Shown here: piece by piece, positions 39,930-50,708 of the stretch
How the letters are laid out: every line of letters begins with the position of its first letter
Position numbering within the stretch: the first letter of the stretch is position 1
Position numbers and translations under genes: made by a program
Source of the DNA: Burkholderiales bacterium
GTDB lineage: Bacteria > Pseudomonadota > Gammaproteobacteria > Burkholderiales > SG8-39
Assembly: GCA_036006885.1 (NCBI GenBank)
Contig: DASYPG010000162.1
Coordinates: forward strand, 1-50,708
Direction: 5' to 3'
DNA length: 50,708 nt
The notes under the pieces: generated by a model
The model's input: only the letters and a program-made list of their open reading frames with translations
Databases searched by the model: none
What the model was told of the DNA's origin: nothing

Positions 39930-40623
39930 CGACCAGCGCCTCCGACAGGCTCGCGGCCGGGCCCGGCTCCGCGTCGACGTGCAGCTGCTTCTCGAGCGTG
40001 TTCAGGTGGCTTGCGATCCGCCTTGCCGCGAGCACCGGGTCGCGTTTGGCGAGGGCATCGACGATCTCGCGGTGCTCGTCGGCGCCGCAGTACGCGGGCC
40101 GCGAGCCCCTGTGCGCGAGGGTGAGGAGCGGCGTACGGCAGATGAGATGCTCCATGAAGCGGTCGAGCGCCGCGTTGCCGGCGAGCTCGGCCAGCAGCTT
40201 GTGGAAGCGAATCGACAGGCGCTGTCCGGTCCTGCGGTCGCCGCGGTCGTAGGCCTTCTGCTCCTCGGCGACGAAAGCGCGCAGCTCGGCGAGCTGCTTC
40301 GCGCCGATGCTGCGTGCGAGGCCCTGCACTACCGCCGATTCGATCACGCGCCGCGCCTCGAACACGTCGCGGGTCTCTTCCGGCGTCGGATTGGCGATGA
40401 CCGCGCCGCGGTTGGGGCGCAGCTCGACGAGCAGGCTGTGGCCCAGGCGCGCCAGCGCCGTGCGCACCGCGCCGCGGCTCACCCCGAGCAGCTCGGAGAG
40501 ATCCCGCTCCACGAGCTTGGTGCCCGGCGCGAGGCGGTGATCGAGAATCGCGTTCAGGACGGCGTTGAACACCCGGTCCTCGGCCGCGCGCCCGCTGCGT
40601 GGTTTCATCGGGCGCATCTTCAC
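39922..40623 (-). CDS. GntR-family (FadR/FCD-type) transcriptional regulator
   Basis: LVERDLSELLGVSRGAVRTALARL is a wHTH, followed by an all-helical C-terminal domain. The start is GTG 40623, ATG 40617 or ATG 40608. Confidence 0.85.
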   Translation of the reverse strand: MKMRPMKPRSGRAAEDRVFNAVLNAILDHRLAPGTKLVERDLSELLGVSRGAVRTALARLGHSLLVELRPNRGAVIANPTPEETRDVFEARRVIESAVVQGLARSIGAKQLAELRAFVAEEQKAYDRGDRRTGQRLSIRFHKLLAELAGNAALDRFMEHLICRTPLLTLAHRGSRPAYCGADEHREIVDALAKRDPVLAARRIASHLNTLEKQLHVDAEPGPAASLSEALVDA

Positions 40624-40639
40624 CGTGCGCCCGGCGAAA

Positions 40640-40670
40640 TGTCAACAAGTCGGCTCCAATTTTGTTGACA
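40640..40670. promoter_or_regulatory. Inverted repeat TGTCAACAA-N13-TTGTTGACA in the GntR / xdhA divergent region (candidate operator with embedded -35-like hexamers)
   Basis: Perfect 9-bp arms at 40640-40648 and 40662-40670. Each arm contains TTGACA facing outward. TACCCT lies 18 nt downstream of the right hexamer. Confidence 0.45.
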
Positions 40671-40706
40671 ATCCGTGCCCGGCCCCCCTACCCTGTCCGG
40701 CAGGAC

Positions 40707-42095
40707 ATGAAGGCCGCCCTCGACTTTCTGCTGAACGGCGAGCGCGTCTCGCTGGCGGAAGAAAATCCTTCGCGCACGCTGCTCACCTGGCTGCGCGAGG
40801 CGCGCGGCCTGGTCGGCACCAAGGAGGGCTGCGCCGAAGGCGATTGCGGCGCGTGCAGCGTGGTGCTCTCCGATGTCGGGCCCGGGGGCAAGCTGCGCTA
40901 CCAGCCGGTAAACGCCTGCATTCTGTGCATCGGCGCGCTCGAGGGGAAGGAAGTCATCACCGTCGAAGGGCTCAAGAAAGGCGATCGGCTGCACGCGGTG
41001 CAGCAGGCCATGGTCGACTGCCACGGCTCGCAATGCGGCTTCTGCACGCCGGGCTTCGTCATGGCGCTCTACGCCCATTGCAAGAGCGGGGCGCCCCCCG
41101 AGCTCTCCGACGCGATCGCCGGAAACCTGTGCCGCTGCACCGGCTACCGGCCAATCCTGCAGGCGGGCAAGCGCGCACGCGAGCTCGCCGACTGGCAGCA
41201 GGAAGCGGCCGAGGATGCGGCGCGCGCGAAGCGCATCGTCGCGCTCCCCAAAGAAACGACCCGCGTCAAAGGCTTTTTCAGTCCACTCAGCGTCGCCGAG
41301 TTCGCGCGCTACCTCTTGGAGCACCCGAAGGCCAGCGTCCTCGCCGGCGGCACCGACGCGGGACTGTGGATCACCAAGGAGCACCGCCAGCTCGACGATA
41401 TCGTCTACATCGGCCGGGTCGCCGAGCTCGGGAAAATCGAAGAGACCCCGAGGCAGCTCGAGATCGGCGCGGCGGTGACCTACGCCGAGGCCTACGAGGC
41501 CCTGGAGCGCATCCATCCGCACATCGGCGAGCTGCTGCGGCGGCTGGGCGCGGTCCAGGTGCGCGCGGTCGGGACGCTCGCCGGCAACATCGCCAACGGC
41601 TCGCCGATCGGCGATTCGATGCCGGTGCTGCTCGCCCTCGACGCGACGCTCACCCTGCAAAAGGGCGAAGCCGCGCGCGAAGCGCGGCTCGCACGCTTCT
41701 ATACGGGCTACCGCAAGAGCGTGCTGCTTCCCGGCGAGTTCGTCCGGAGCATCCGCGTGCCGAAGCTCGCGCCCGGCGCGCGCTTCGCCGCCTACAAGCT
41801 GTCCAAGCGCTTCGACCAGGACATTTCTTCCGTGTGCGCTGCCTTTCACGTGGAAGGCAACAAGGCGAGGTTCGGCTTCGGCGGCATGGCCGCAACGCCT
41901 GCGCGTGCACGCCAGGCAGAGGCCGCCTACGCAGCGAAAGGCATCGAAGCAGCCTGCACGGCGCTGGTCGAGGACTTCAGCCCGATCTCCGACCCAAGGG
42001 CGTCGGCCTGGTATCGCCTCCGCGCCGCGCAGGCGCTGCTGCGGAAATTCCATGCCGGCGCGAGCTCGCGCGCGCTGCTCGATATGGCCCCGTGA
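40707..42095 (+). CDS. xdhA: Xanthine dehydrogenase small subunit (2Fe-2S + FAD), XdhA (462 aa)
   Basis: Start ATG 40707 (MKAALDFLLNGERV). Motifs CAEGDCGACSV, GSQCGFCTPG, NLCRCTGY and GGTDAGLW. Confidence 0.9.
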   Translation: MKAALDFLLNGERVSLAEENPSRTLLTWLREARGLVGTKEGCAEGDCGACSVVLSDVGPGGKLRYQPVNACILCIGALEGKEVITVEGLKKGDRLHAVQQAMVDCHGSQCGFCTPGFVMALYAHCKSGAPPELSDAIAGNLCRCTGYRPILQAGKRARELADWQQEAAEDAARAKRIVALPKETTRVKGFFSPLSVAEFARYLLEHPKASVLAGGTDAGLWITKEHRQLDDIVYIGRVAELGKIEETPRQLEIGAAVTYAEAYEALERIHPHIGELLRRLGAVQVRAVGTLAGNIANGSPIGDSMPVLLALDATLTLQKGEAAREARLARFYTGYRKSVLLPGEFVRSIRVPKLAPGARFAAYKLSKRFDQDISSVCAAFHVEGNKARFGFGGMAATPARARQAEAAYAAKGIEAACTALVEDFSPISDPRASAWYRLRAAQALLRKFHAGASSRALLDMAP

Positions 42096-42096
42096 C

Positions 42097-44388
42097 GTGA
42101 TCCACCAGGCGCTGGCCCACGATAGCGCGGCGCTGCACGTCAGCGGCGAAGCGCGTTACGTCGACGACCTGCCCGAGCCCCCGGGCACGCTGTACGCGGC
42201 GTTCGGCATGTCCACCGAGACGCACGCGAGGATTCTCGCGCTCGATCTCGCTCCGGTGCGCGCGGCCGAGGGCGTGGTGGCGGTGCTCACCGCCGCCGAC
42301 ATCCCGGGCGCCAATAACATCGGCCCGGTCGTGGCGGACGAACCGGCGCTGGCGACGAACTTGGTGCAGTTCCGCGGCCAGCCGCTGTTTGCCGTCGCGG
42401 CCACCCGCGTCGAGCTCGCCCGGCGCGCGGCGCGCCTCGCCCGCGTCGAATACGAGCGGCTCGATCCGGTGGTGACGATCGAGCAGGCGCTCGAGGCGAA
42501 CCAGTTCGTGCTGCCGAGCGTGAGGTGCGAGCGCGGCAGCGTGGCGAGCCTCCCCGGCGCGGCAAACCGGATCAGGGGCCGGCTGCGTTGCGGGGCGCAG
42601 GAGCACTTTTATCTCGAGGGACAGGTCGCGCTCGCGATTCCGGGCGAGGGCGGCGAGATGCTGGTGCACTCCTCGACCCAGCATCCGAGCGAAATCCAGC
42701 ACCTCGTGGCCGCGGCGCTCGGCGTGCCCGACGCCGCCGTGACGGTCGAGCTGCGGCGCCTCGGCGGCGCCTTCGGCGGCAAGGAAACGCAGGCGGCGGT
42801 CTACGCGGTCGGCGCGGCGCTGCTCGCCCGCGCCACGCGGCGTCCGGTCAAGATGAGAGCCGACCGGGACGACGACATGGTCGGCACAGGCAAGCGCCAT
42901 GACTTCCTGTACCAGTACGACGTGGGTTTCGACCGCACGGGACGCATCGAGGCGCTCGACCTGACGCTCGCTTCGCGCTGCGGCCTGTCGGTGGACTTGT
43001 CCGGCGCGGTCAACGACCGGGCCGTGTTCCATTGCGACAACGCCTACTTCCTGCAGAACGTGCGCATCGTCTCGCATCGTTGCAGGACGCACACCGTGTC
43101 GGGCACCGCGTTTCGCGGCTTCGGCGGACCTCAGGGCATGTTCGCGGCGGAGGCGGTGGTGGCGGCAATCGCGCGGCACCTCGGCATCGATGCGCTCGAC
43201 GTGCGAAAGCGCAACCTCTACGGGCCGGCGCCGCGCGACGTCACGCACTACGGCATGACGCTCAAGGACAACGTCCTGCCCGAGCTCATCGACGAGCTCG
43301 AGGCGCGCTCCGAGTACCGCCGGCGCCGCGAGGCGGTGAAGGCCTTCAACGCTTCGTCGCCGTTCTTCAAGCGCGGCTTGGCCCTCACGCCGGTCAAGTT
43401 CGGAATCGCCTACACCGCGCAGGCGATGAACCAGGGCGGCGCGCTGGTGCACCTTTACACCGACGGCAGCGTGCACCTGAACCACGGCGGCACCGAGATG
43501 GGCCAGGGACTGATGATCAAGGTGGCGCAGATCGTCGCCGCGGAGCTGCAGGTCGACCTCGAGCGCATCCAGGTCAGCGCCACCTCGACCGGCAAGGTGC
43601 CCAACACCTCGCCCACCGCGGCCTCGAGCGGCACCGACATCAACGGCGAGGCAGCGCGCGACGCGTGCCGCACCCTCAAGCAGCGCCTCGTCCGGCATTG
43701 CGCCGAGACCTACAAGGCGCGCCCGGACGAAGTGGTGTTCCTGCCTAACCAGGTCGCGATCGGAGCCGCGAAGACGCTCACCTTCACGCAGCTCGTGCGC
43801 GAAGCGTACCTCGCGCGCGTGCCGCTCTCCGCGACCGGCTATTGGCGCACGCCTGAAATCCAGTTCGACCGCGAGCGCTGGCGCGGCACGCCCTTCTACT
43901 ACTTCGCTTACGGCGCCGCGGTATCCGAGGTCGCAGTCGATGTCCTCACCGGCGAGTCGCGCCTGCTGCGCGCCGACCTGCTGCACGACGCCGGCCGCTC
44001 GCTGAACCCGGCGATCGACCGCGGCCAGATCGAGGGCGGGTTCATCCAGGGCATGGGCTGGCTCACCATGGAAGAGGTCGTCTGGGACGACCAGGGGCGC
44101 CTCCTCACGCACGCGCCCTCCACCTACAAGATCCCGGTCGCGAGCGACTGCCCGCCGGTGTTCAACGTCTGGCTGTGGGAAAAGGGCGAGAACGTGCGCG
44201 ACGTGGCGCATCGCTCCAAGGCGGTCGGCGAACCGCCGCTGATGCTCGCGCTTTCGGTGTTCCAGGCGATCGCCGACGCCGTCGGCGCGACCGCTGGCTC
44301 ACGCGAGCCGGTGCCGCTCGAGGCCCCCGCGACGCCCGAGAACATCCTGAAGGCCATCCATGAGCTACATCGAAATCCGGGTCGTTGA
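42097..44388 (+). CDS. xdhB: Xanthine dehydrogenase molybdopterin-binding subunit, XdhB (763 aa)
   Basis: GTG 42097 lies 1 nt after the xdhA stop (VIHQALAHDSAALHVSGEARYVDDLP). Motifs FRGFGGPQG and KAVGEPPLML. Confidence 0.9.
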   Translation: MIHQALAHDSAALHVSGEARYVDDLPEPPGTLYAAFGMSTETHARILALDLAPVRAAEGVVAVLTAADIPGANNIGPVVADEPALATNLVQFRGQPLFAVAATRVELARRAARLARVEYERLDPVVTIEQALEANQFVLPSVRCERGSVASLPGAANRIRGRLRCGAQEHFYLEGQVALAIPGEGGEMLVHSSTQHPSEIQHLVAAALGVPDAAVTVELRRLGGAFGGKETQAAVYAVGAALLARATRRPVKMRADRDDDMVGTGKRHDFLYQYDVGFDRTGRIEALDLTLASRCGLSVDLSGAVNDRAVFHCDNAYFLQNVRIVSHRCRTHTVSGTAFRGFGGPQGMFAAEAVVAAIARHLGIDALDVRKRNLYGPAPRDVTHYGMTLKDNVLPELIDELEARSEYRRRREAVKAFNASSPFFKRGLALTPVKFGIAYTAQAMNQGGALVHLYTDGSVHLNHGGTEMGQGLMIKVAQIVAAELQVDLERIQVSATSTGKVPNTSPTAASSGTDINGEAARDACRTLKQRLVRHCAETYKARPDEVVFLPNQVAIGAAKTLTFTQLVREAYLARVPLSATGYWRTPEIQFDRERWRGTPFYYFAYGAAVSEVAVDVLTGESRLLRADLLHDAGRSLNPAIDRGQIEGGFIQGMGWLTMEEVVWDDQGRLLTHAPSTYKIPVASDCPPVFNVWLWEKGENVRDVAHRSKAVGEPPLMLALSVFQAIADAVGATAGSREPVPLEAPATPENILKAIHELHRNPGR

Positions 44389-45091
44389 GACCCGCGGCTC
44401 CACGCCGCGCGAGTCCGGCACGCGCATGTGGGTCGGCGCATCCGAGATCCGCGGCACCATCGGCGGCGGCAATCTCGAGTACACCGCGCTCAAGATCGCG
44501 CGCGAGATGCTCCTCTCCGGCGAGACCGAGCGCCAGCGCAGGTTCGTTCTCGGCGACGCGCTCGGCCAATGCTGCGGCGGCAATACCACGCTCGCCTTCA
44601 AAAGGGCAGAAGAAATCGAAGGGGAAGAAGATCGATTCGACGTGGTGCTCTTCGGCGCCGGCCACGTCGGCAAGGAAGTCGCCCGCATCCTGGAGCGGGT
44701 TCCCTGCCGCCTGACGTGGGTCGATCAGCGTCCCGAGCAGTTCCCCTCGCAGACGAGCGCCCAGGTCGTGATCGAGGACGAGCCCATCTTTGCCGTCGAC
44801 GAAGCGCCGCCGGGGGCTTTCTACGTCGTCATGACTCACAGCCATGCGCTCGACTACGAGATCGTGGAGCGCGCACTGCAGCGCAAGGATGCCCGCTTTG
44901 TCGGGATGATCGGCTCTGAAACCAAGGCGGCCAAGCTGCGCTCGCGCCTCAAAACGCGCAGGATCGACGCATCGCGGCTCGTTTCTCCGATCGGTCTGTT
45001 CAAGGCCGGCAAGCATCCCGCTGAAGTGGCGGTATCGGCGGTGGCGCAGCTCCTTCAGCTGCGCCAGGAAGCTATTTCATCCGATCCTTGA
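44360..45091 (+). CDS. xdhC: Xanthine dehydrogenase accessory (Mo-cofactor insertion) protein XdhC
   Basis: RGSTPRESGTRMWV, GTIGGGNLEY and FGAGHVGKEV. It overlaps the xdhB 3' end by 29 nt. Confidence 0.85.
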   Translation: MSYIEIRVVETRGSTPRESGTRMWVGASEIRGTIGGGNLEYTALKIAREMLLSGETERQRRFVLGDALGQCCGGNTTLAFKRAEEIEGEEDRFDVVLFGAGHVGKEVARILERVPCRLTWVDQRPEQFPSQTSAQVVIEDEPIFAVDEAPPGAFYVVMTHSHALDYEIVERALQRKDARFVGMIGSETKAAKLRSRLKTRRIDASRLVSPIGLFKAGKHPAEVAVSAVAQLLQLRQEAISSDP

Positions 45092-45590
45092 TCTTCTCGA
45101 GCGCGCCGCGCGCGCACTCTTCGTCGAAATTCCCGCCGGGAGCGCCGCTCACGCCCAGGCCGCCGATCGTCTGGCCGCCCGCGGTGATCGCGACTGCGCC
45201 CTGCGCGTAGGTCACGTTCGGCAGCGGCGTCTGCGGCACCGTGGTGGGCGCGGCCTTCGCCATGCGGTCGGCGATCGCCTTGGTGGTTTCTTCCTTGCGC
45301 GCCAGCCCGAGCGAAGCGATCGTGTAGGCCTTGTAGTACGCGTTGTCCATCGAGTGGATCGGCGCGCCGTCGCCGCGCAGCAGGGCCTGGCGCACGCCGT
45401 CGAGATCGACCACCACGGCGACGACCTTGTAGCCGTTTTTCGCGCAGTTCGCGACCGAGTCGCCGACGAGCTGGTTCGCCAGCTGGGCGGACAGCTTGTG
45501 CGTCGTGACAAGGCCTTGCGCGTTGAGCGCCGGCGCCGCGGCGAACGCGAGAGAGAATGCAACCGCTTGCAGTGCAGAAATGCGAGACAT
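45072..45590 (-). CDS. GlcG/HbpS-like (DUF336) haem-binding-fold protein with a signal peptide (172 aa)
   Basis: Signal-like MSRISALQAVAFSLAFAAAPALNAQG. Motif GGLGVSGAPGG. GGAGGA RBS. The 3' end overlaps the xdhC 3' end by 20 nt. Confidence 0.75.
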   Translation of the reverse strand: MSRISALQAVAFSLAFAAAPALNAQGLVTTHKLSAQLANQLVGDSVANCAKNGYKVVAVVVDLDGVRQALLRGDGAPIHSMDNAYYKAYTIASLGLARKEETTKAIADRMAKAAPTTVPQTPLPNVTYAQGAVAITAGGQTIGGLGVSGAPGGNFDEECARGALEKIKDRMK

Positions 45591-45674
45591 GGGACTCCTC
45601 CGTTGGATGTGGCCGGCTGGGCCGCGGCCACGATAGAGGAAAACCGCGGCGCGCGGAAGTGCTTGAGGCGACCC

Positions 45675-47078
45675 TCAGAGGCGCGGCGCGCGCAGGTGCC
45701 AGTCGGTGACCCGCTGGAACGCGTGCCCCGCGCGCAGCGCGGTCGCTTCGTCGAAGGGCCGGCCAACGAGCTGCAGGCCGATAGGCATCCCGTCGCGGCT
45801 GAAGCCGGCGTTGGCGCACACGGTCGGCAGCCCGAGGTAGCTGCCCGGGCGGGTGAGGCGCGTGATGCGGGCGAGGACCGCGGCGGTGCGCTCGCTCCAG
45901 CCGAGCTCGGTCTCCGCGATGGCGGGGGTCGCAATGCCGAGCACCGGCGCGTGCAGCAGGTCGACCTTGGAGAACACCTGTGCGCAGAATTCGGCGAGCG
46001 CCGCGCCGCGCATGCGCAGGGCGTCGATGTAGGCCGTCGCCGGGATCGCAAGCCCCTGCACCAGGCGCCCGCGCACCTGGTCGGAATAGTCGCCGCCCCG
46101 GGTACGCAGCCACTCTCGGTGGAGCGCGGCCGCCTCGGCCGTGCTGATGAGCACTGCCGCCGCGTTGTAAGCGGCGAAATCCGGCACGTCGACATCGACG
46201 ACGCTCGCGCCGAGCCGGCGAAACGCTTCGAGCGATGCCTCCATGGCGGCGGCGACCTCGGGCTCGCATTCGTCGTAGAAGTGCTGGCGCGGACGACCCA
46301 GGCGAAGCCCTTTTATCGGGTTTTCCAGTTGATTGACCCAGTTTGGAACAGGCCGTGGGTCGCAGGTTGGATCCAGAGGATCGGGACCTGCGATCAGCTG
46401 CCCGATGAGCGCCGCGTCCTCCACCGTTCGAGTGAGCGGACCGACGGTGTCGAGCGAGTGGGAGAGCGGCATCGCGCCAGCGCGGGACACGCGCGCGTAG
46501 GTCGGCTTGATCGCGGAGGTGCCGCACATGGCGGCCGGAAGGCGGATCGAGCCGCCGGTGTCGGAGCCCAGTCCCGCGAAGTTTGTCCGCGCCGCGATCG
46601 AGGCGCCGGTCCCGGATGAAGAGCCGCCGGTGATGCGCTCGGGGTCCCACGGATTGCGGCAGTGGCCGTAATGCCAGTTGTGCCCGGTGGGACCGAGCGC
46701 GAATTCGGTCATGTTGAGCACGCCGAACTGGATCGCGCCCGCGGCATCGAGCCGCTCGAGCGCCGTCGCGGTGGTCGGGGCGGGGCGCTCGCGCAGGATC
46801 CGGGAGCCGCACGACGACGCGACGCCCGCGCGGTAATACATGTCCTTGTGCGCCATCGGGACGCCATGGAGGGGGCCGCGAGCCGGCTCGCGATCGGCGC
46901 GGCGCGCCGCTTCGAGCGCGTGGCTTTCGTCGATGCGCAGGAAGCAGTTTACTTTCGGCTGCACCTGCCGCGCGCGCTCGAGAACCGCCTCCATCGCGGC
47001 CAGCGCGCTGGTGCGCCGCTCGCGGATCGCGGCGGCGAGCTGCGTGCAGGAAAGCGCGAGGATCTCGTCCGGGCTCAT
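45675..47078 (-). CDS. Amidase-signature amidohydrolase, AtzE-like (467 aa)
   Basis: K-cisS-S triad context: GVPMAHKDM, GGSSSGTGA and GSDTGGSIRLPAA. ATGA overlap with the small upstream ORF. Confidence 0.85.
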   Translation of the reverse strand: MSPDEILALSCTQLAAAIRERRTSALAAMEAVLERARQVQPKVNCFLRIDESHALEAARRADREPARGPLHGVPMAHKDMYYRAGVASSCGSRILRERPAPTTATALERLDAAGAIQFGVLNMTEFALGPTGHNWHYGHCRNPWDPERITGGSSSGTGASIAARTNFAGLGSDTGGSIRLPAAMCGTSAIKPTYARVSRAGAMPLSHSLDTVGPLTRTVEDAALIGQLIAGPDPLDPTCDPRPVPNWVNQLENPIKGLRLGRPRQHFYDECEPEVAAAMEASLEAFRRLGASVVDVDVPDFAAYNAAAVLISTAEAAALHREWLRTRGGDYSDQVRGRLVQGLAIPATAYIDALRMRGAALAEFCAQVFSKVDLLHAPVLGIATPAIAETELGWSERTAAVLARITRLTRPGSYLGLPTVCANAGFSRDGMPIGLQLVGRPFDEATALRAGHAFQRVTDWHLRAPRL

Positions 47079-47260
47079 GGCGCCTGGCGCCGCTGCTCTA
47101 GGAGATAGAGGCCAGGCTCGGCTTCGAGCGGCAGCCTGGCAAACGGCTCGGCCGTGGTCTTGAAGATCGAGGCGAGGATGTTACCCGCGGCCTCGACGTG
47201 CGTCGGACTGGGCTGCACGCCGTGCTCCTCGATGAGCGTCTTTGCGAGCGTCGGATTCAT
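47075..47260 (-). CDS. Small (61 aa) AtzG-like / DUF4089-like protein, probable partner subunit of the amidase
   Basis: Start ATG 47260 (MNPTLAKTLIEEHG...). ATGA overlaps on both sides. The size, position and ...FARLPLEAEPGLY pattern resemble AtzG-type partners of AtzE-type amidases. The call rests on recall, not a search. Confidence 0.55.
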   Translation of the reverse strand: MNPTLAKTLIEEHGVQPSPTHVEAAGNILASIFKTTAEPFARLPLEAEPGLYLLEQRRQAP

Positions 47261-48429
47261 TTGAGGTCGGCTCCGGATCGGTACCAGCGCTCGAGCAGCG
47301 CGCGCTCTTCGTCGGTCATGGCGGTGAGGTTCCCCGGCGGCATGGCCTTCGATCGCGCCGCCTGCTGGTAGATTTGCGGCGCGGCCGCGCGCACTCGCTC
47401 GGGAGTATCGAGCTTTACGCCCTTGGGTGCTTCCGCCAAGCCCTGGAAGCTGGGCTTGTCCGCGTGGCAATTCACGCAACGCACTCCGATGATGCCTTGC
47501 ACTTGCGCAAAGGGAACCGGGCCGGCCTCGGGCACCCCTCTCGGCGCGAGGAAAATGGCGCTCGCGACGAAGACGAGCACCCCGAGGGCCCACACCCATG
47601 CCGGCGCGCGGCCCTTGTGGCGCATCACGAACCACACCCGGACCAGGGCGCCCGCGACCGTCATCGCGACGAGCGCGAGCCACGCCGAGCGCGCGCCGAA
47701 CACCGCGGCGTAGTGCCCGGAGATCATGGTGAAGACGACCGGCAGCGTGAAATAGGTGTTGTGCACGCTGCGCTGCTTGCCCAGCACGCCGTCGCGCGCG
47801 TCCGGCTCGCGCCCCGCCTTCATCGCCTCGACCATGCGGCGCTGGCCGGGGATGATGACGTGGGCGACGTTCGCCACCATGATGGTTCCGAGGATCGCGC
47901 CGTAGTGGATGAAGGCGCCACGCCCGCCGAAGATCCGGGTGAGGCCCCAGGCGGCCAGCCCGAGCAGGACCAAGAGGGCAAAACCCAAGGCGAAATCGTT
48001 CCTCGCCAAAGGAGAACGGCACAGGCCTTCATAGATGGCGTACCCGCCGACGATGAAGGCGAGGCCGAGGCCGATCGCCCAAGGCTTGGAGAGCGGCATC
48101 ACCTGCGGGTCGACGAGGTAGAACTCGGCTTGGGCGTAGTACATCAGCGCGAGCAGCGCAATGCCGGTGAACCAGGTCCAGTACGCCTCCCACTTGAACC
48201 AGTGCAGCGTCGCCGGCATGCGCGCCGGCGCGAGCCTGAACTTTTCGGCGCGGTAGAAACCGCCGCCGTGGATCGCCCACAGCTCGCCGGCAATGCGAGG
48301 ATCGCCCGACGGCTCGAGGTGATTGTCGAGCCAGATGAAATAGAGCGACGCCCCGATCCACGCGATGCCGACGATCACATGCGCCCAGCGCAGCGCGAGG
48401 TTCAGCCACTCGAGGGCATAGGCTTCCAC
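47257..48429 (-). CDS. puuD: Membrane-bound urate hydroxylase PuuD (cytochrome c domain at the C-terminus), 390 aa
   Basis: MEAYALEWLNLALRWAHVIVGIAWIGASLYFIWLDNHL, ELWAIHGGGFY and LHWFKWEAYWTW. C-terminal CVNCH haem-c motif. Confidence 0.85.
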   Translation of the reverse strand: MEAYALEWLNLALRWAHVIVGIAWIGASLYFIWLDNHLEPSGDPRIAGELWAIHGGGFYRAEKFRLAPARMPATLHWFKWEAYWTWFTGIALLALMYYAQAEFYLVDPQVMPLSKPWAIGLGLAFIVGGYAIYEGLCRSPLARNDFALGFALLVLLGLAAWGLTRIFGGRGAFIHYGAILGTIMVANVAHVIIPGQRRMVEAMKAGREPDARDGVLGKQRSVHNTYFTLPVVFTMISGHYAAVFGARSAWLALVAMTVAGALVRVWFVMRHKGRAPAWVWALGVLVFVASAIFLAPRGVPEAGPVPFAQVQGIIGVRCVNCHADKPSFQGLAEAPKGVKLDTPERVRAAAPQIYQQAARSKAMPPGNLTAMTDEERALLERWYRSGADLK

Positions 48430-48440
48430 TTATTGGCGCG

Positions 48441-48773
48441 TCAGGCGCCGCCCCGAAAGCAGGAGTAGCCCCACGGCGTGCACTTGAACGGCAAATGGTA
48501 ATGCTGGTCCGGATTGGAAACGCCAAAGCGGTAGGTCACGACTTCGAGAAAGGGGACTTGGGGCAGGTCGACCCGCTGACTGCGATACCAGTCGGCGACG
48601 TGGAAGACCGCCTCGTAGAAACCGGGGGCTACCCGCTGGCTCACGTCCAGTGTCCCTTTGTCCGACGTCTCGCCGCCAGCGACCAGCCGGCCAGCGTGCC
48701 GAAGCTCGACGCGCATGCCCGCGGCGACGACACCCCGCGAGACGTCGACTACATGGATGGACACCCCCGGCAT
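48441..48773 (-). CDS. Transthyretin-like protein, divergent HIU-hydrolase paralog with a non-canonical C-terminus (110 aa)
   Basis: Start ATG 48773 (MPGVSIHVVDVSRG). HYHLPF is kept, but the protein ends CFRGGA instead of the YRGS tetrapeptide. Confidence 0.7.
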   Translation of the reverse strand: MPGVSIHVVDVSRGVVAAGMRVELRHAGRLVAGGETSDKGTLDVSQRVAPGFYEAVFHVADWYRSQRVDLPQVPFLEVVTYRFGVSNPDQHYHLPFKCTPWGYSCFRGGA

Positions 48774-49732
48774 CAATTCAGCTTCGCGCCTGAGTCCTTG
48801 ACCGGCTGATACCAGTCTTTGACCTGCGCCGCGACGAAAGCGGTGAACTGCTCCGGCGTCATGTCGCGGCTCTGGACGCCGAGCTCGGCGAGGCGCTGCG
48901 CGACCTTCGGATCCGCGAGCGCCTTCTTGTTGGCCGCGTTGATGCGCGCGACGACCTCGCGCGGCAGTCCGGCGGGTCCGGAAATACCGAGGAAGTTCTC
49001 CGCCACCAGCTTCCTCTGGCCGAGCTCCTGCACGCTCGGCACGTCGGGCGCCATCGGAGCGCGCGCGGGCGAGGTGACGGCAATGGCGCGAAGCTTCCCG
49101 TCCTTGATGAACGGGACGTTCTGCGGCAGCGTGTCGATGGCGAGCTTGATCGTGCCCGACAGGAGATCGTTGTGCATGGGCGAGGAGCCCTTGTAGCCGA
49201 CGTGCTCCATGCGCAGGCCGTAGTCCTTCTTCATCGTCTCGCCCACCAGGTGGCCGATCGAGCCGATCCCGCCCGAGCCGTAGTTCACCGGGTTCTTCTG
49301 CGCCTTGATCCACGCGATGAGCTCCGCCATGTTCTTCGCCGGGACCGAGGGATGGATCACGAACACGTTCGCCACCGAGCCGATATAGGCGGCGTGGGTG
49401 AAGGCCTTGACCGGGTCGTAGCGCGGCTCGTCCTGCATCGCCGGCGAGATGCTGATCGGCGCGCTGTTCGAAAGGAGCAGCGTATAGCCGTCGGGCTCGG
49501 CGCGCGCCGCTTCGTTCGCCCCGATGGTGCCGCCGGCGCCGGGCTTGTTGTCCACGATGATGCTCTGGCCGAGCTCGGTCTGCAGCGGAATCGCGATCAG
49601 GCGCGCCACGATGTCGGACGAGCCGCCGGGCGCGAACGTTACGATCACGCGCAGCGGCTTGGTGGGCCAGCTTTGCGCCGTCACGTTCGTCGACGCGGCA
49701 AGAGCAAGGACGATGATGCTGAGAAATTTCAT
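48773..49732 (-). CDS. Bug-family (TctC-like) substrate-binding protein
   Basis: Signal peptide; RVIVTFAPGGSSDIVAR...DNKPGAGGTIG. Confidence 0.9.
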   Translation of the reverse strand: MKFLSIIVLALAASTNVTAQSWPTKPLRVIVTFAPGGSSDIVARLIAIPLQTELGQSIIVDNKPGAGGTIGANEAARAEPDGYTLLLSNSAPISISPAMQDEPRYDPVKAFTHAAYIGSVANVFVIHPSVPAKNMAELIAWIKAQKNPVNYGSGGIGSIGHLVGETMKKDYGLRMEHVGYKGSSPMHNDLLSGTIKLAIDTLPQNVPFIKDGKLRAIAVTSPARAPMAPDVPSVQELGQRKLVAENFLGISGPAGLPREVVARINAANKKALADPKVAQRLAELGVQSRDMTPEQFTAFVAAQVKDWYQPVKDSGAKLN

Positions 49733-49735
49733 TTT

Positions 49736-50068
49736 TTAGCTCCCTCTATAGATCGTATAGCCCCAAGGCGAACACAGCAGCGGCACGTGATAGTGCGCCG
49801 CTGCGTCCGCGATCGTGAACCGGATCGGCACTACGTCGAGGAACCCCTGGCCGGCGAAGTACGCACCGACGTGGAACACGAGCTGATAGGTTCCGGTGCG
49901 AAAGCTGGCTGCGTCCAGGAGAGGCGCGTCGGTGCGCCCATCGCGGTTCGTCGTCGCCTTCGCAACAAGCGTGCCAATTTCGTTTTCGAGACGATAGAGC
50001 TCAACCGCGATGCCGGCGCCGGGCTTGCCGCGCGCGGTGTCCAGCACGTGGGTGGTGAGCCTACCCAT
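49736..50068 (-). CDS. uraH: 5-hydroxyisourate hydrolase (110 aa)
   Basis: HVLDTARG and [19 protein letters not shown], with the canonical C-terminal YRGS. Confidence 0.9.
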
Positions 50069-50582
50069 TGACGATCTTTTCCAGCCGGCCGCGCGTGATA
50101 TGGCCGATCTGCTCGAGCGCAGCCTTGAGCTCGGAGCTCGAATCGTTCAGGGCTCGACGCTCCATTTCAGTCACTACACTTGCACGAGTTGAGTGCAAAC
50201 GCAGCGCCACGATGCACGGAAAGCCGTGCCGCTCGCGGTAGCGCCGGTTCAGCCTTTGCATGGCCTCAACCTCGTCTCGGGTCAATTGAAGAAAACCAAG
50301 CCGGCCCTGCTCGCTCGACGAATCCACTGTCAGCGCGCCCTGCTTCGCTTCCTTGCCCGCCAGTTCGGGATGCGCGCGCACCAGGGCGAGCTGCTCTTCC
50401 CTCTTCGCTTCGGCGACGGCCTGCATCATCGCCGCGTGAAGCGCGTCGAGCGAGCCGAAAGGCTTCTTCTGCCAGGCGCGCCGCGCCACCCACGGCGAGT
50501 GCTCGAACACGCCGCCGAATCGCTCCACGAACTCGCGTTCCCCCAGCGCATTCACTGCGGCGAGCACCGCGGCGAGCTCCAC
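50061..50582 (-). CDS. uraD: 2-oxo-4-hydroxy-4-carboxy-5-ureidoimidazoline (OHCU) decarboxylase
   Basis: [23 protein letters not shown] and [16 protein letters not shown] 50582 is preferred as the start because ATG 50645 and ATG 50642 would overlap the divergent gene. Confidence 0.8.
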
Positions 50583-50589
50583 GCACGCT

Positions 50590-50599
50590 AGTGTACACT
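50590..50599. promoter_or_regulatory. Perfect 10-bp palindrome AGTGTACACT centred in the 25-bp gap between the divergent uraD and amidohydrolase genes
   Basis: The sequence is its own reverse complement. It has a GT-N-AC core of the kind used by GntR-type operators. Confidence 0.4.
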
Positions 50600-50607
50600 C
50601 GAGCGAA

Positions 50608-50708
50608 ATGGCAGAAGCGCCGCGGGTCGAAGCGTCTCGCATCATGCAGCGCTGCGATGCGCTGGCGCGGCATTCGGAGCTGCCTGGAGGACTGACCCGC
50701 GTCTTTCT
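50608..50708 (+). CDS. 5' end of an M20-family Zn hydrolase, allantoate amidohydrolase / N-carbamoyl-amino-acid hydrolase-like (3' end outside window)
   Basis: MAEAPRVEASRIMQRCDALARHSELPGGLTRVF matches the typical N-terminus of this family (…RCDxLxxxSExPGxLTRvfLs). Only 33 codons are visible. Confidence 0.5.
   Translation, partial: MAEAPRVEASRIMQRCDALARHSELPGGLTRVF

Follow-up and report, generated by a model that had tools for sequence, protein, structure and literature searches.

Gene Organization of the puuD-Amidase Locus

The window analyzed here, i.e., the whole 50,708-nucleotide (nt) stretch of contig DASYPG010000162.1 (assembly GCA_036006885.1, an uncultured soil Burkholderiales bacterium), contains on its minus strand a urate hydroxylase gene (puuD), a 61-residue open reading frame (ORF), and a gene for an amidase-signature enzyme. 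The small ORF and the amidase gene, together referred to as the pair, are the subject of this analysis. Genomes, contigs, and loci are given G, C, and L numbers, and G000 is the genome of the window. The three genes were as follows:

47257-48429, minus strand: puuD, urate hydroxylase, a membrane protein with a C-terminal cytochrome c domain (PF06181, weak PF13442)
47075-47260, minus strand: small subunit of 61 residues, divergent AtzG/GatC-like candidate partner of the amidase (ATGA overlaps, hhalign, complex model)
45675-47078, minus strand: amidase-signature enzyme, placed in a GatA-derived clade sister to the AtzE family (PF01425, tree)

The puuD gene ran from a GTG at 48429 to a TGA at 47257 (390 residues), the small ORF from an ATG at 47260 to a TGA at 47075 (61 residues), and the amidase gene from an ATG at 47078 to a TGA at 45675 (467 residues). 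Both junctions read ATGA (47260-47257 between puuD and the small ORF; 47078-47075 between the small ORF and the amidase gene), so the stop codon of each gene overlaps the start codon of the next. The original prediction for this DNA had described three genes joined by two ATGA overlaps at an operon end, and every coordinate was correct. PuuD matched PF06181 (Urate_ox_N) at 4e-121 over residues 3-294 and carried a CVNCH haem c motif (CxxCH) in a C-terminal domain with a weak PF13442 match; both diagnostic features of PuuD were present.

The Small ORF and Its Relationship to AtzG-Like Proteins

The guanine-plus-cytosine (GC) content of the small ORF by codon position (0.68/0.45/0.82) resembled that of puuD and the amidase gene and differed from that of the two other frames. 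Pairwise ratios of nonsynonymous to synonymous substitution rates (dN/dS) against its four closest orthologs were 0.09-0.42. Together the two measures spoke against a chance reading frame, and by them the small ORF reads as a real gene under purifying selection. A word-index search returned 37 protein clusters at 75-92% identity, nearly all 61 residues long and from uncultured Burkholderiales. At E ≤ 1e-3, a profile search of 1.8 billion representatives returned 28 clusters; with two exceptions, these were small proteins of 30-84 residues. Members of the small-ORF family were 42-66 residues long and shared the pattern ..QGV....(about 20)..A..F..L.FE.EP..F..EQRR.AP, with 24 invariant columns across 20 homologs. 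The family is missed by current annotation, which leaves the partner of the amidase as a "hypothetical protein."

The original prediction had likened the pair to AtzG/AtzE and to GatC/GatA, with membership in DUF4089/AtzG and TIGR02715 (AtzE) to be confirmed by hidden Markov model searches. The small ORF had no match to PF13318 (DUF4089) at E ≤ 1 (cut-off 24 bits) and none to the GatC family PF02686. Searches of Pfam, NCBIfam, and PDB returned no match, including a PDB search with the family profile, and a protein atlas gave sub-threshold leads only, to an AtzG-like cluster (0.84) and a GatC cluster (0.83).

Profile-to-profile comparison was made against 29 PF13318 proteins encoded upstream of amidases in other Burkholderiales. 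These were mined from 401 Burkholderiales genomes in place of a word-index homolog search, in which an AtzG-like seed gave two proteins only. Alignment of the small-ORF family with this set by hhalign covered 54 colinear columns with 79% probability (E 1.6e-5). The score was 28.7, whereas the reversed alignment reached 8.6 and none of 60 column shuffles exceeded 13.5. By the same comparison AtzG-like proteins and GatC, whose relationship the literature accepts (PMC6219798), reached only 26%. The 68-residue ORFs upstream of Roseomonas-type amidases aligned with the window's small-ORF family at 94%. These results support the small ORF as a probable distant relative of AtzG-like proteins that falls outside PF13318.

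Placement of the Amidase

The amidase matched PF01425 at 6.8e-106. Its best NCBIfam models were those of the AtzE family, and it scored below both cut-offs (NF006631, 358 vs. 461 bits; TIGR02715, 342 vs. 426 bits). Four amidases with a PF13318 partner, used as positive controls, scored 669-721 bits on the AtzE models, and relatives of the window amidase scored 306-356 bits. A tree of 99 sequences (quick LG+G4 model, rooted on GatC-linked GatA) had several long branches, and only its strongly supported splits were used. The 24 AtzG-linked amidases formed one clade, with 100% support in the Shimodaira-Hasegawa-like approximate likelihood ratio test (SH-aLRT). The window amidase fell in another (99% SH-aLRT) together with a urate-operon group and a Roseomonas-type group. 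On this phylogeny the amidase is placed outside the AtzE family, in a sister clade.

The Lys-cisSer-Ser triad (K78, S153, S177) was invariant in 30 aligned clade members. The window amidase and AtzE both lacked the GatA insertion of ~17 residues after the AEAxS motif. The amidase kept an Arg aligned to GatA R358 and had a Thr at the position of GatA D425; we take these two GatA positions to be glutamine/substrate-binding residues. By pairwise score its best PDB match was Pseudomonas aeruginosa GatA (2e-86). A housekeeping GatCA was ruled out for the pair by the canonical gatC-gatA on contig C44 and by the lack of a PF02686 match.

Predicted Binding of the Small Protein to the Amidase

The two proteins were modeled as two chains, each with a custom 30-row alignment. 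The complex scores were 0.94, 0.94, and 0.93, and the best of three controls scored 0.00. Of 80 solved complexes and 110 mismatched pairs, 58 and 2, respectively, passed the score mark, counts that are only a rough calibration because custom alignments were supplied. At least 97% of contacts agreed between runs, and the predicted local distance difference test (pLDDT) score of the partner was at least 94. Since GatCA and AtzEG complexes have been solved, a pass may reflect likeness to them and not binding of this copy.

The predicted interface was made up of amidase residues around 300-370 and 394-446, on a helical face. With interface residues taken from the complex model, amidases of the partner-less ortholog clade were 34-42% identical to the window amidase at the interface vs. 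65-69% over the rest of the chain (ratio 0.52-0.64). The ratio was 0.98-1.09 in close orthologs with a partner and 0.95 in L008, where the partner was lost recently. The model and this pattern support a predicted binding of the small protein to the amidase, and we infer that the two would associate physically.

Comparison with AtzE-AtzG and GatC-GatA

The nearest described system is AtzE-AtzG, the 1-carboxybiuret hydrolase of Pseudomonas sp. ADP (PDB 6C62), which likewise has a GatA-derived Ser-cisSer-Lys amidase. In both systems the gene for a non-catalytic partner of ~60-70 residues comes first and is joined to the amidase gene by a stop/start overlap, the partner profiles are colinear, and the amidases lack the GatA insertion. 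AtzG is obligate for the solubility of AtzE (PMC6219798). Unlike AtzE, the window amidase scores below the AtzE cut-offs and belongs to a separate clade; its partner is not recognized by PF13318 and is lost in some orthologs; and no AtzD, AtzH, or AtzF gene stands beside the pair. GatC-GatA of the GatCAB transamidosome belongs to the same fold family and also has the small-subunit gene first. The window pair differs from it in having no GatC Pfam match, no gatB beside it, no GatA insertion, and a Thr at D425. What stood of the proposed parallel was therefore the architecture (remote homology, a predicted complex, the deletion shared relative to GatA, and an intact triad), and what fell was membership in AtzE and AtzG.

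AtzE being the nearest curated family, the pair could be a functional AtzEG equivalent acting on 1-carboxybiuret, or on an analogue arising from non-enzymatic oxidation of urate to triuret/cyanuric acid, with the product passing to allophanate hydrolase. On C651, with a xanthine-type permease gene as its neighbor, the genome does encode a bona fide allophanate hydrolase (844 bits), but C651 is another contig than that of the pair, and the neighbors of the pair include no AtzH-like gene. The amidase also scored half of what true AtzG-linked amidases scored and fell outside their clade, which makes this explanation improbable. AtzD/barbiturase was not found in the genome (92.8% complete), a negative that is weak since the same search found none in any control genome.

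Distribution of the Pair and Loss of the Partner

Species-representative genomes held 14 loci with an amidase (63-90% identity) downstream of puuD, all from uncultured Burkholderiales. The 61-residue ORF stood upstream of the amidase in L002-L005. A shortened version of 42-43 residues, comprising the C-terminal half only, was found in L006 and L013, and L007 had a similar short remnant. In L008, L011, L012, L038, and L046, puuD directly abutted the amidase gene with no small ORF between them. Other genes lay between puuD and the amidase in L014 and L015, including a 226-residue ORF directly upstream of the amidase. This ORF, which belongs to no Pfam family, overlapped the amidase start in place of the small ORF (L015:5330-6007; L014:5330-6007; and L010:1062-1739, a short contig that does not reach puuD).

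Four partner-less genomes had no small-ORF homolog anywhere at E ≤ 0.1, which ruled out a relocated copy in those four. The positions of the partner-less orthologs on the tree imply at least two losses. Outside the puuD-linked group the partner was also present in L009 and L016 and in Roseomonadaceae loci, where the partner of Roseicella is annotated as a 70-residue gene with a 4-nt overlap into the amidase gene. Of nine clade members taken from other Burkholderiales genomes, eight had the partner and one, L152, did not. The partner is thus the rule in the sister clade and is shortened or lost in several urate-operon orthologs. The genome of the window contained two paralogous pairs, L116 (G000:C554:5464-8036) and L117 (G000:C401:1487-3006). 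Their amidases were ~48% identical to that of the window, their stop/start overlaps read TTGA and GTGA, and one pair directly followed a TctC gene.

Such losses raise the alternative of an amidase that acts alone, the small ORF being a remnant in decay that no longer has a function. Its absence from L008, L011, L012, L038, L046, and L152 (with no homolog elsewhere in four of these genomes) and its reduction to 42-43 residues in L006 and L013 would be expected of a remnant. A remnant would not be expected to show dN/dS of 0.09-0.42, length and frame kept throughout the window's subclade, 24 columns invariant across 20 homologs, and a confident predicted interface conserved only where the partner exists. 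This alternative is a long shot.

Linkage of puuD and the Amidase

Linkage was surveyed in an even sample, the 401 Burkholderiales genomes. PuuD was found in 85 and an amidase match at E ≤ 1e-90 in 37. The two genes were adjacent in 2 of the 85 PuuD-bearing genomes, namely this one and its congener G450, and G450 lacked the small ORF. The combination of puuD with a complete pair is therefore rare and lineage-specific, and within this sample it occurred in this genome alone. The original prediction had read tight coupling to the first urate-oxidizing step as a clue to function and had called for such a survey. The coupling turned out to carry little functional weight: only one narrow lineage shows the adjacency, several orthologous operons have no small ORF, and relatives of the pair occur in unrelated contexts.

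The operon position may even be incidental, the pair having been inserted behind puuD in one lineage and acting on an unrelated carboxylated amide imported through a TctC/tripartite tricarboxylate transporter (TTT) system. The adjacency in 2 of 85 genomes is consistent with this, as are the same-genome paralogous pairs beside TctC genes without purine genes, and the Roseicella and Paraburkholderia relatives with unrelated neighbors. Set against them are the retention of the amidase within the urate/xdh supercluster across 56-90% identity in this lineage, and the recurrence of distant clade members beside uraD/uraH/PuuE or xdhABC genes in other families. On these data an incidental position is rather unlikely.

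Among loci of the latter kind, xdhABC lay 2.7 kb downstream of the clade member in L155, and PuuE lay 8 kb from the clade member in L149. In a third, from another Burkholderiales family (L156, G215:C12:38500-57900), the gene row was uraD, uraH, a NicO-like permease, the small ORF, the amidase, a VOC/glyoxalase gene, a PuuE-like deacetylase, an Asp/Glu/hydantoin racemase, and TctC. This row was divergent from allantoate amidohydrolase and PuuE.

Neighboring Genes and the Encoded Purine Pathway

The remaining features around the pair in the window were as follows:

40599-45091, plus strand: xdhA-xdhB-xdhC, xanthine dehydrogenase and maturation factor, convergent (Pfam for xdhB and xdhC)
45072-45590, minus strand: GlcG/HbpS-like (DUF336) gene, 3' of the amidase (PF03928, 2.4e-22)
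45644-45656, minus strand: terminator-like GC hairpin and T run, 19 nt past the amidase stop
48441-48773, minus strand: second transthyretin/5-hydroxyisourate (HIU)-hydrolase-like gene (PF00576, 3e-19)
48773-49732, minus strand: TctC/Bug-family periplasmic solute-binding protein (PF03401, 8.4e-64)
49736-50068, minus strand: uraH, HIU hydrolase (PF00576, 3.1e-37)
50061-50645, minus strand: uraD, 2-oxo-4-hydroxy-4-carboxy-5-ureidoimidazoline (OHCU) decarboxylase, start codon uncertain (~50645) (PF09349, 1e-45)
50608-50708, plus strand: 5' end of allantoate amidohydrolase, divergent, running on into contig C166 (141-nt identity to C166)

The minus-strand row was uraD-uraH-TctC-transthyretin2-puuD-small ORF-amidase, and uraD, uraH, TctC, and the second transthyretin-like gene were spaced or overlapped by at most 11 nt. 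The second transthyretin-like gene, in the interval between TctC and puuD, was present at 66-89% identity in all related operons in addition to the canonical uraH. The position of the hairpin (45656-45644) is suggestive of an operon end after the amidase, with which it fits, though the GlcG/HbpS-like gene follows on the same strand and such patterns in the region were not above chance. The GlcG/HbpS-like gene followed the amidase in L002-L005 and was not found in L006-L008 and L012, so it is no fixed part of the module. The genes xdhA, xdhB, and xdhC were kept beside the operon in relatives.

The end of contig C166 and the end of the window were identical over exactly 141 nt (window 50568-50708). 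As C166 continues the window through this overlap, the purine supercluster was split by the assembly. C166 (L113, G000:C166:1-11941) encoded allantoate amidohydrolase (NF006775, 575 bits vs. cut-off 479) and the allantoinase PuuE (523 bits vs. cut-off 425). It also carried a class-V aminotransferase, carbamate kinase (AllK), and AllH, with AllG, AllF, and a second TctC on the opposite strand. AllFGH is oxamic transcarbamylase (PMC11326118). PuuE, an M20 allantoate-amidohydrolase-like gene, and AllG were each found on the purine-cluster contig in all four relatives searched. A search of G000, G600, G408, and G215 found no ureidoglycolate lyase/allantoicase (PF04115). As read from these genes, the encoded route would lead from urate through HIU, OHCU, allantoin, and allantoate to ureidoglycine, then by transamination to oxalurate, and from there to oxamate and carbamoyl phosphate, the latter yielding ATP, NH3, and CO2.

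A second AllK-AllG-AllF set was present on C651 (L118, G000:C651:4800-13200). It was divergent from the allophanate hydrolase gene (NF006043, 844 bits), and genes for a xanthine-type NCS2 permease and for TctC followed.

A described parallel to this gene content is the ggt-atzG-atzE-atzH (hpxWXYZ) cluster of Enterobacteriaceae, in which an AtzG/AtzE-type pair lies among purine genes (PMC6219798, PMC12625717). That cluster adjoins allantoate amidohydrolase and a transaminase, and both the origin of AtzEG from GatCA and the spread of atzG-atzE-atzH have been published (PMC6219798, PMC3560190). With reference to Huynh and Stewart (2023), PMC12625717 terms HpxY an oxalurate amidohydrolase. Like the window pair, the Klebsiella HpxX-HpxY of the hpxWXYZ cluster is an AtzG/AtzE-type pair beside allantoate amidohydrolase and a transaminase, a likeness drawn from cluster descriptions. 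Unlike that cluster, the window has no ggt-like hpxW upstream of the pair and no atzH-like hpxZ downstream; its neighbors are puuD, which the pair follows, and the GlcG/HbpS-like gene, and the cluster carries AllFGH/AllK.

Proposed Function

On balance, the structural small subunit and the amidase probably form an AtzEG-like enzyme that releases ammonia from a late purine-breakdown amide, for instance oxamate or oxalurate. The 61-residue protein would be a non-catalytic subunit of GatC/AtzG descent that wraps and stabilizes the amidase. The pair would thereby be a cytoplasmic Ser-cisSer-Lys amidase of AtzEG-like build, co-transcribed with the genes leading from urate to allantoin. It would deamidate a small anionic (carboxylated) amide formed downstream of urate, on the oxalurate/oxamate branch. 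An action on some amide of the ureide pathway had been proposed from the coupling to puuD. The role itself stayed plausible, with C166 supplying an oxalurate/oxamate branch, and the coupling argument adds little to it.

One of the four nitrogens of urate remains in the oxamate that the AllFGH route yields. HpxW of Klebsiella, an oxamate amidohydrolase of the Ntn/GGT family, frees this last nitrogen; to our knowledge, no enzyme has been assigned to that step outside Klebsiella. One option is that the pair converts oxamate to oxalate and NH3 and so recovers the fourth urate nitrogen. HpxW would then be its candidate functional analogue, of unrelated fold and alike by pathway logic alone. Another option is conversion of oxalurate to oxamate, CO2, and NH3, as proposed for HpxY.

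Among individual substrates for the pair, oxamate may be named first and only tentatively. Oxalurate or another ureido-carboxylate ranks next and is possible at a somewhat lower grade, followed by a compound unrelated to purines, which would be unlikely. Carboxybiuret-type products, for which chemical oxidation of urate is a source (PMC7948467), are quite improbable, and what probability remains falls to other candidates.

Several observations weigh against the assignment of the pair to an AtzEG-like enzyme of the oxalurate/oxamate branch. A six-frame search of the genome with PF13318 returned nothing at the small-ORF locus, and relatives of the small ORF likewise missed PF13318 and GatC. Some orthologs dispense with the small subunit. 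Other clade members, including the Roseicella and Paraburkholderia relatives, had no purine neighbors, and because close relatives of the pair occur without purine genes nearby, the clade is not bound to a single substrate. AllFGH/AllK already dispose of oxalurate, which would leave an oxalurate amidohydrolase redundant, and in G365 the amidase was present at 59% identity but AllG was not found. The oxamate amidohydrolase could instead be one of several GGT-family paralogs encoded elsewhere in the genome. The choice of substrate is itself a guess.

That an AtzEG-like pair may take part in purine catabolism is not a new idea, since AtzEG clusters and hpxWXYZ have already been published. New here are a sister clade missed by the curated AtzE and AtzG models and the placement of the pair behind puuD, with an AllFGH-type oxalurate branch adjoining. 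Also new are the three paralogous pairs within a single genome and the stepwise loss of the small subunit, accompanied by faster change of the residues at the predicted interface. A larger claim, which we hold to be doubtful, would make the pair the missing oxalurate/oxamate-branch amidohydrolase of Burkholderiales, as a non-homologous replacement of HpxW or an HpxY-like enzyme. Its partner would then represent a new, unannotated GatC-derived subunit family in stages of loss (61 residues, 42 residues, none), with the amidase surface remodeled.

The pair is a concrete candidate for releasing the last urate nitrogen from oxamate, and the AtzEG-type design, an amidase with a vestigial GatC-like subunit, is not limited to the two curated families, AtzE and AtzG. 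The orthologs, in which the partner may be complete, truncated, or missing, offer a natural experiment on how an obligate scaffold subunit can come to be dispensable.

No GGT/HpxW-type gene was found on the cluster contigs, and several GGT paralogs were present on other contigs of the genome. A GGT-family gene stood beside a PuuE-like polysaccharide deacetylase paralog at G600:C30:7876-9962 and at G000:C179:1927-2860. The G600 gene matched in two adjacent pieces, and an AllG paralog lay on the same contig. Such a GGT and deacetylase neighborhood could represent an HpxW-like module at another site in these genomes.

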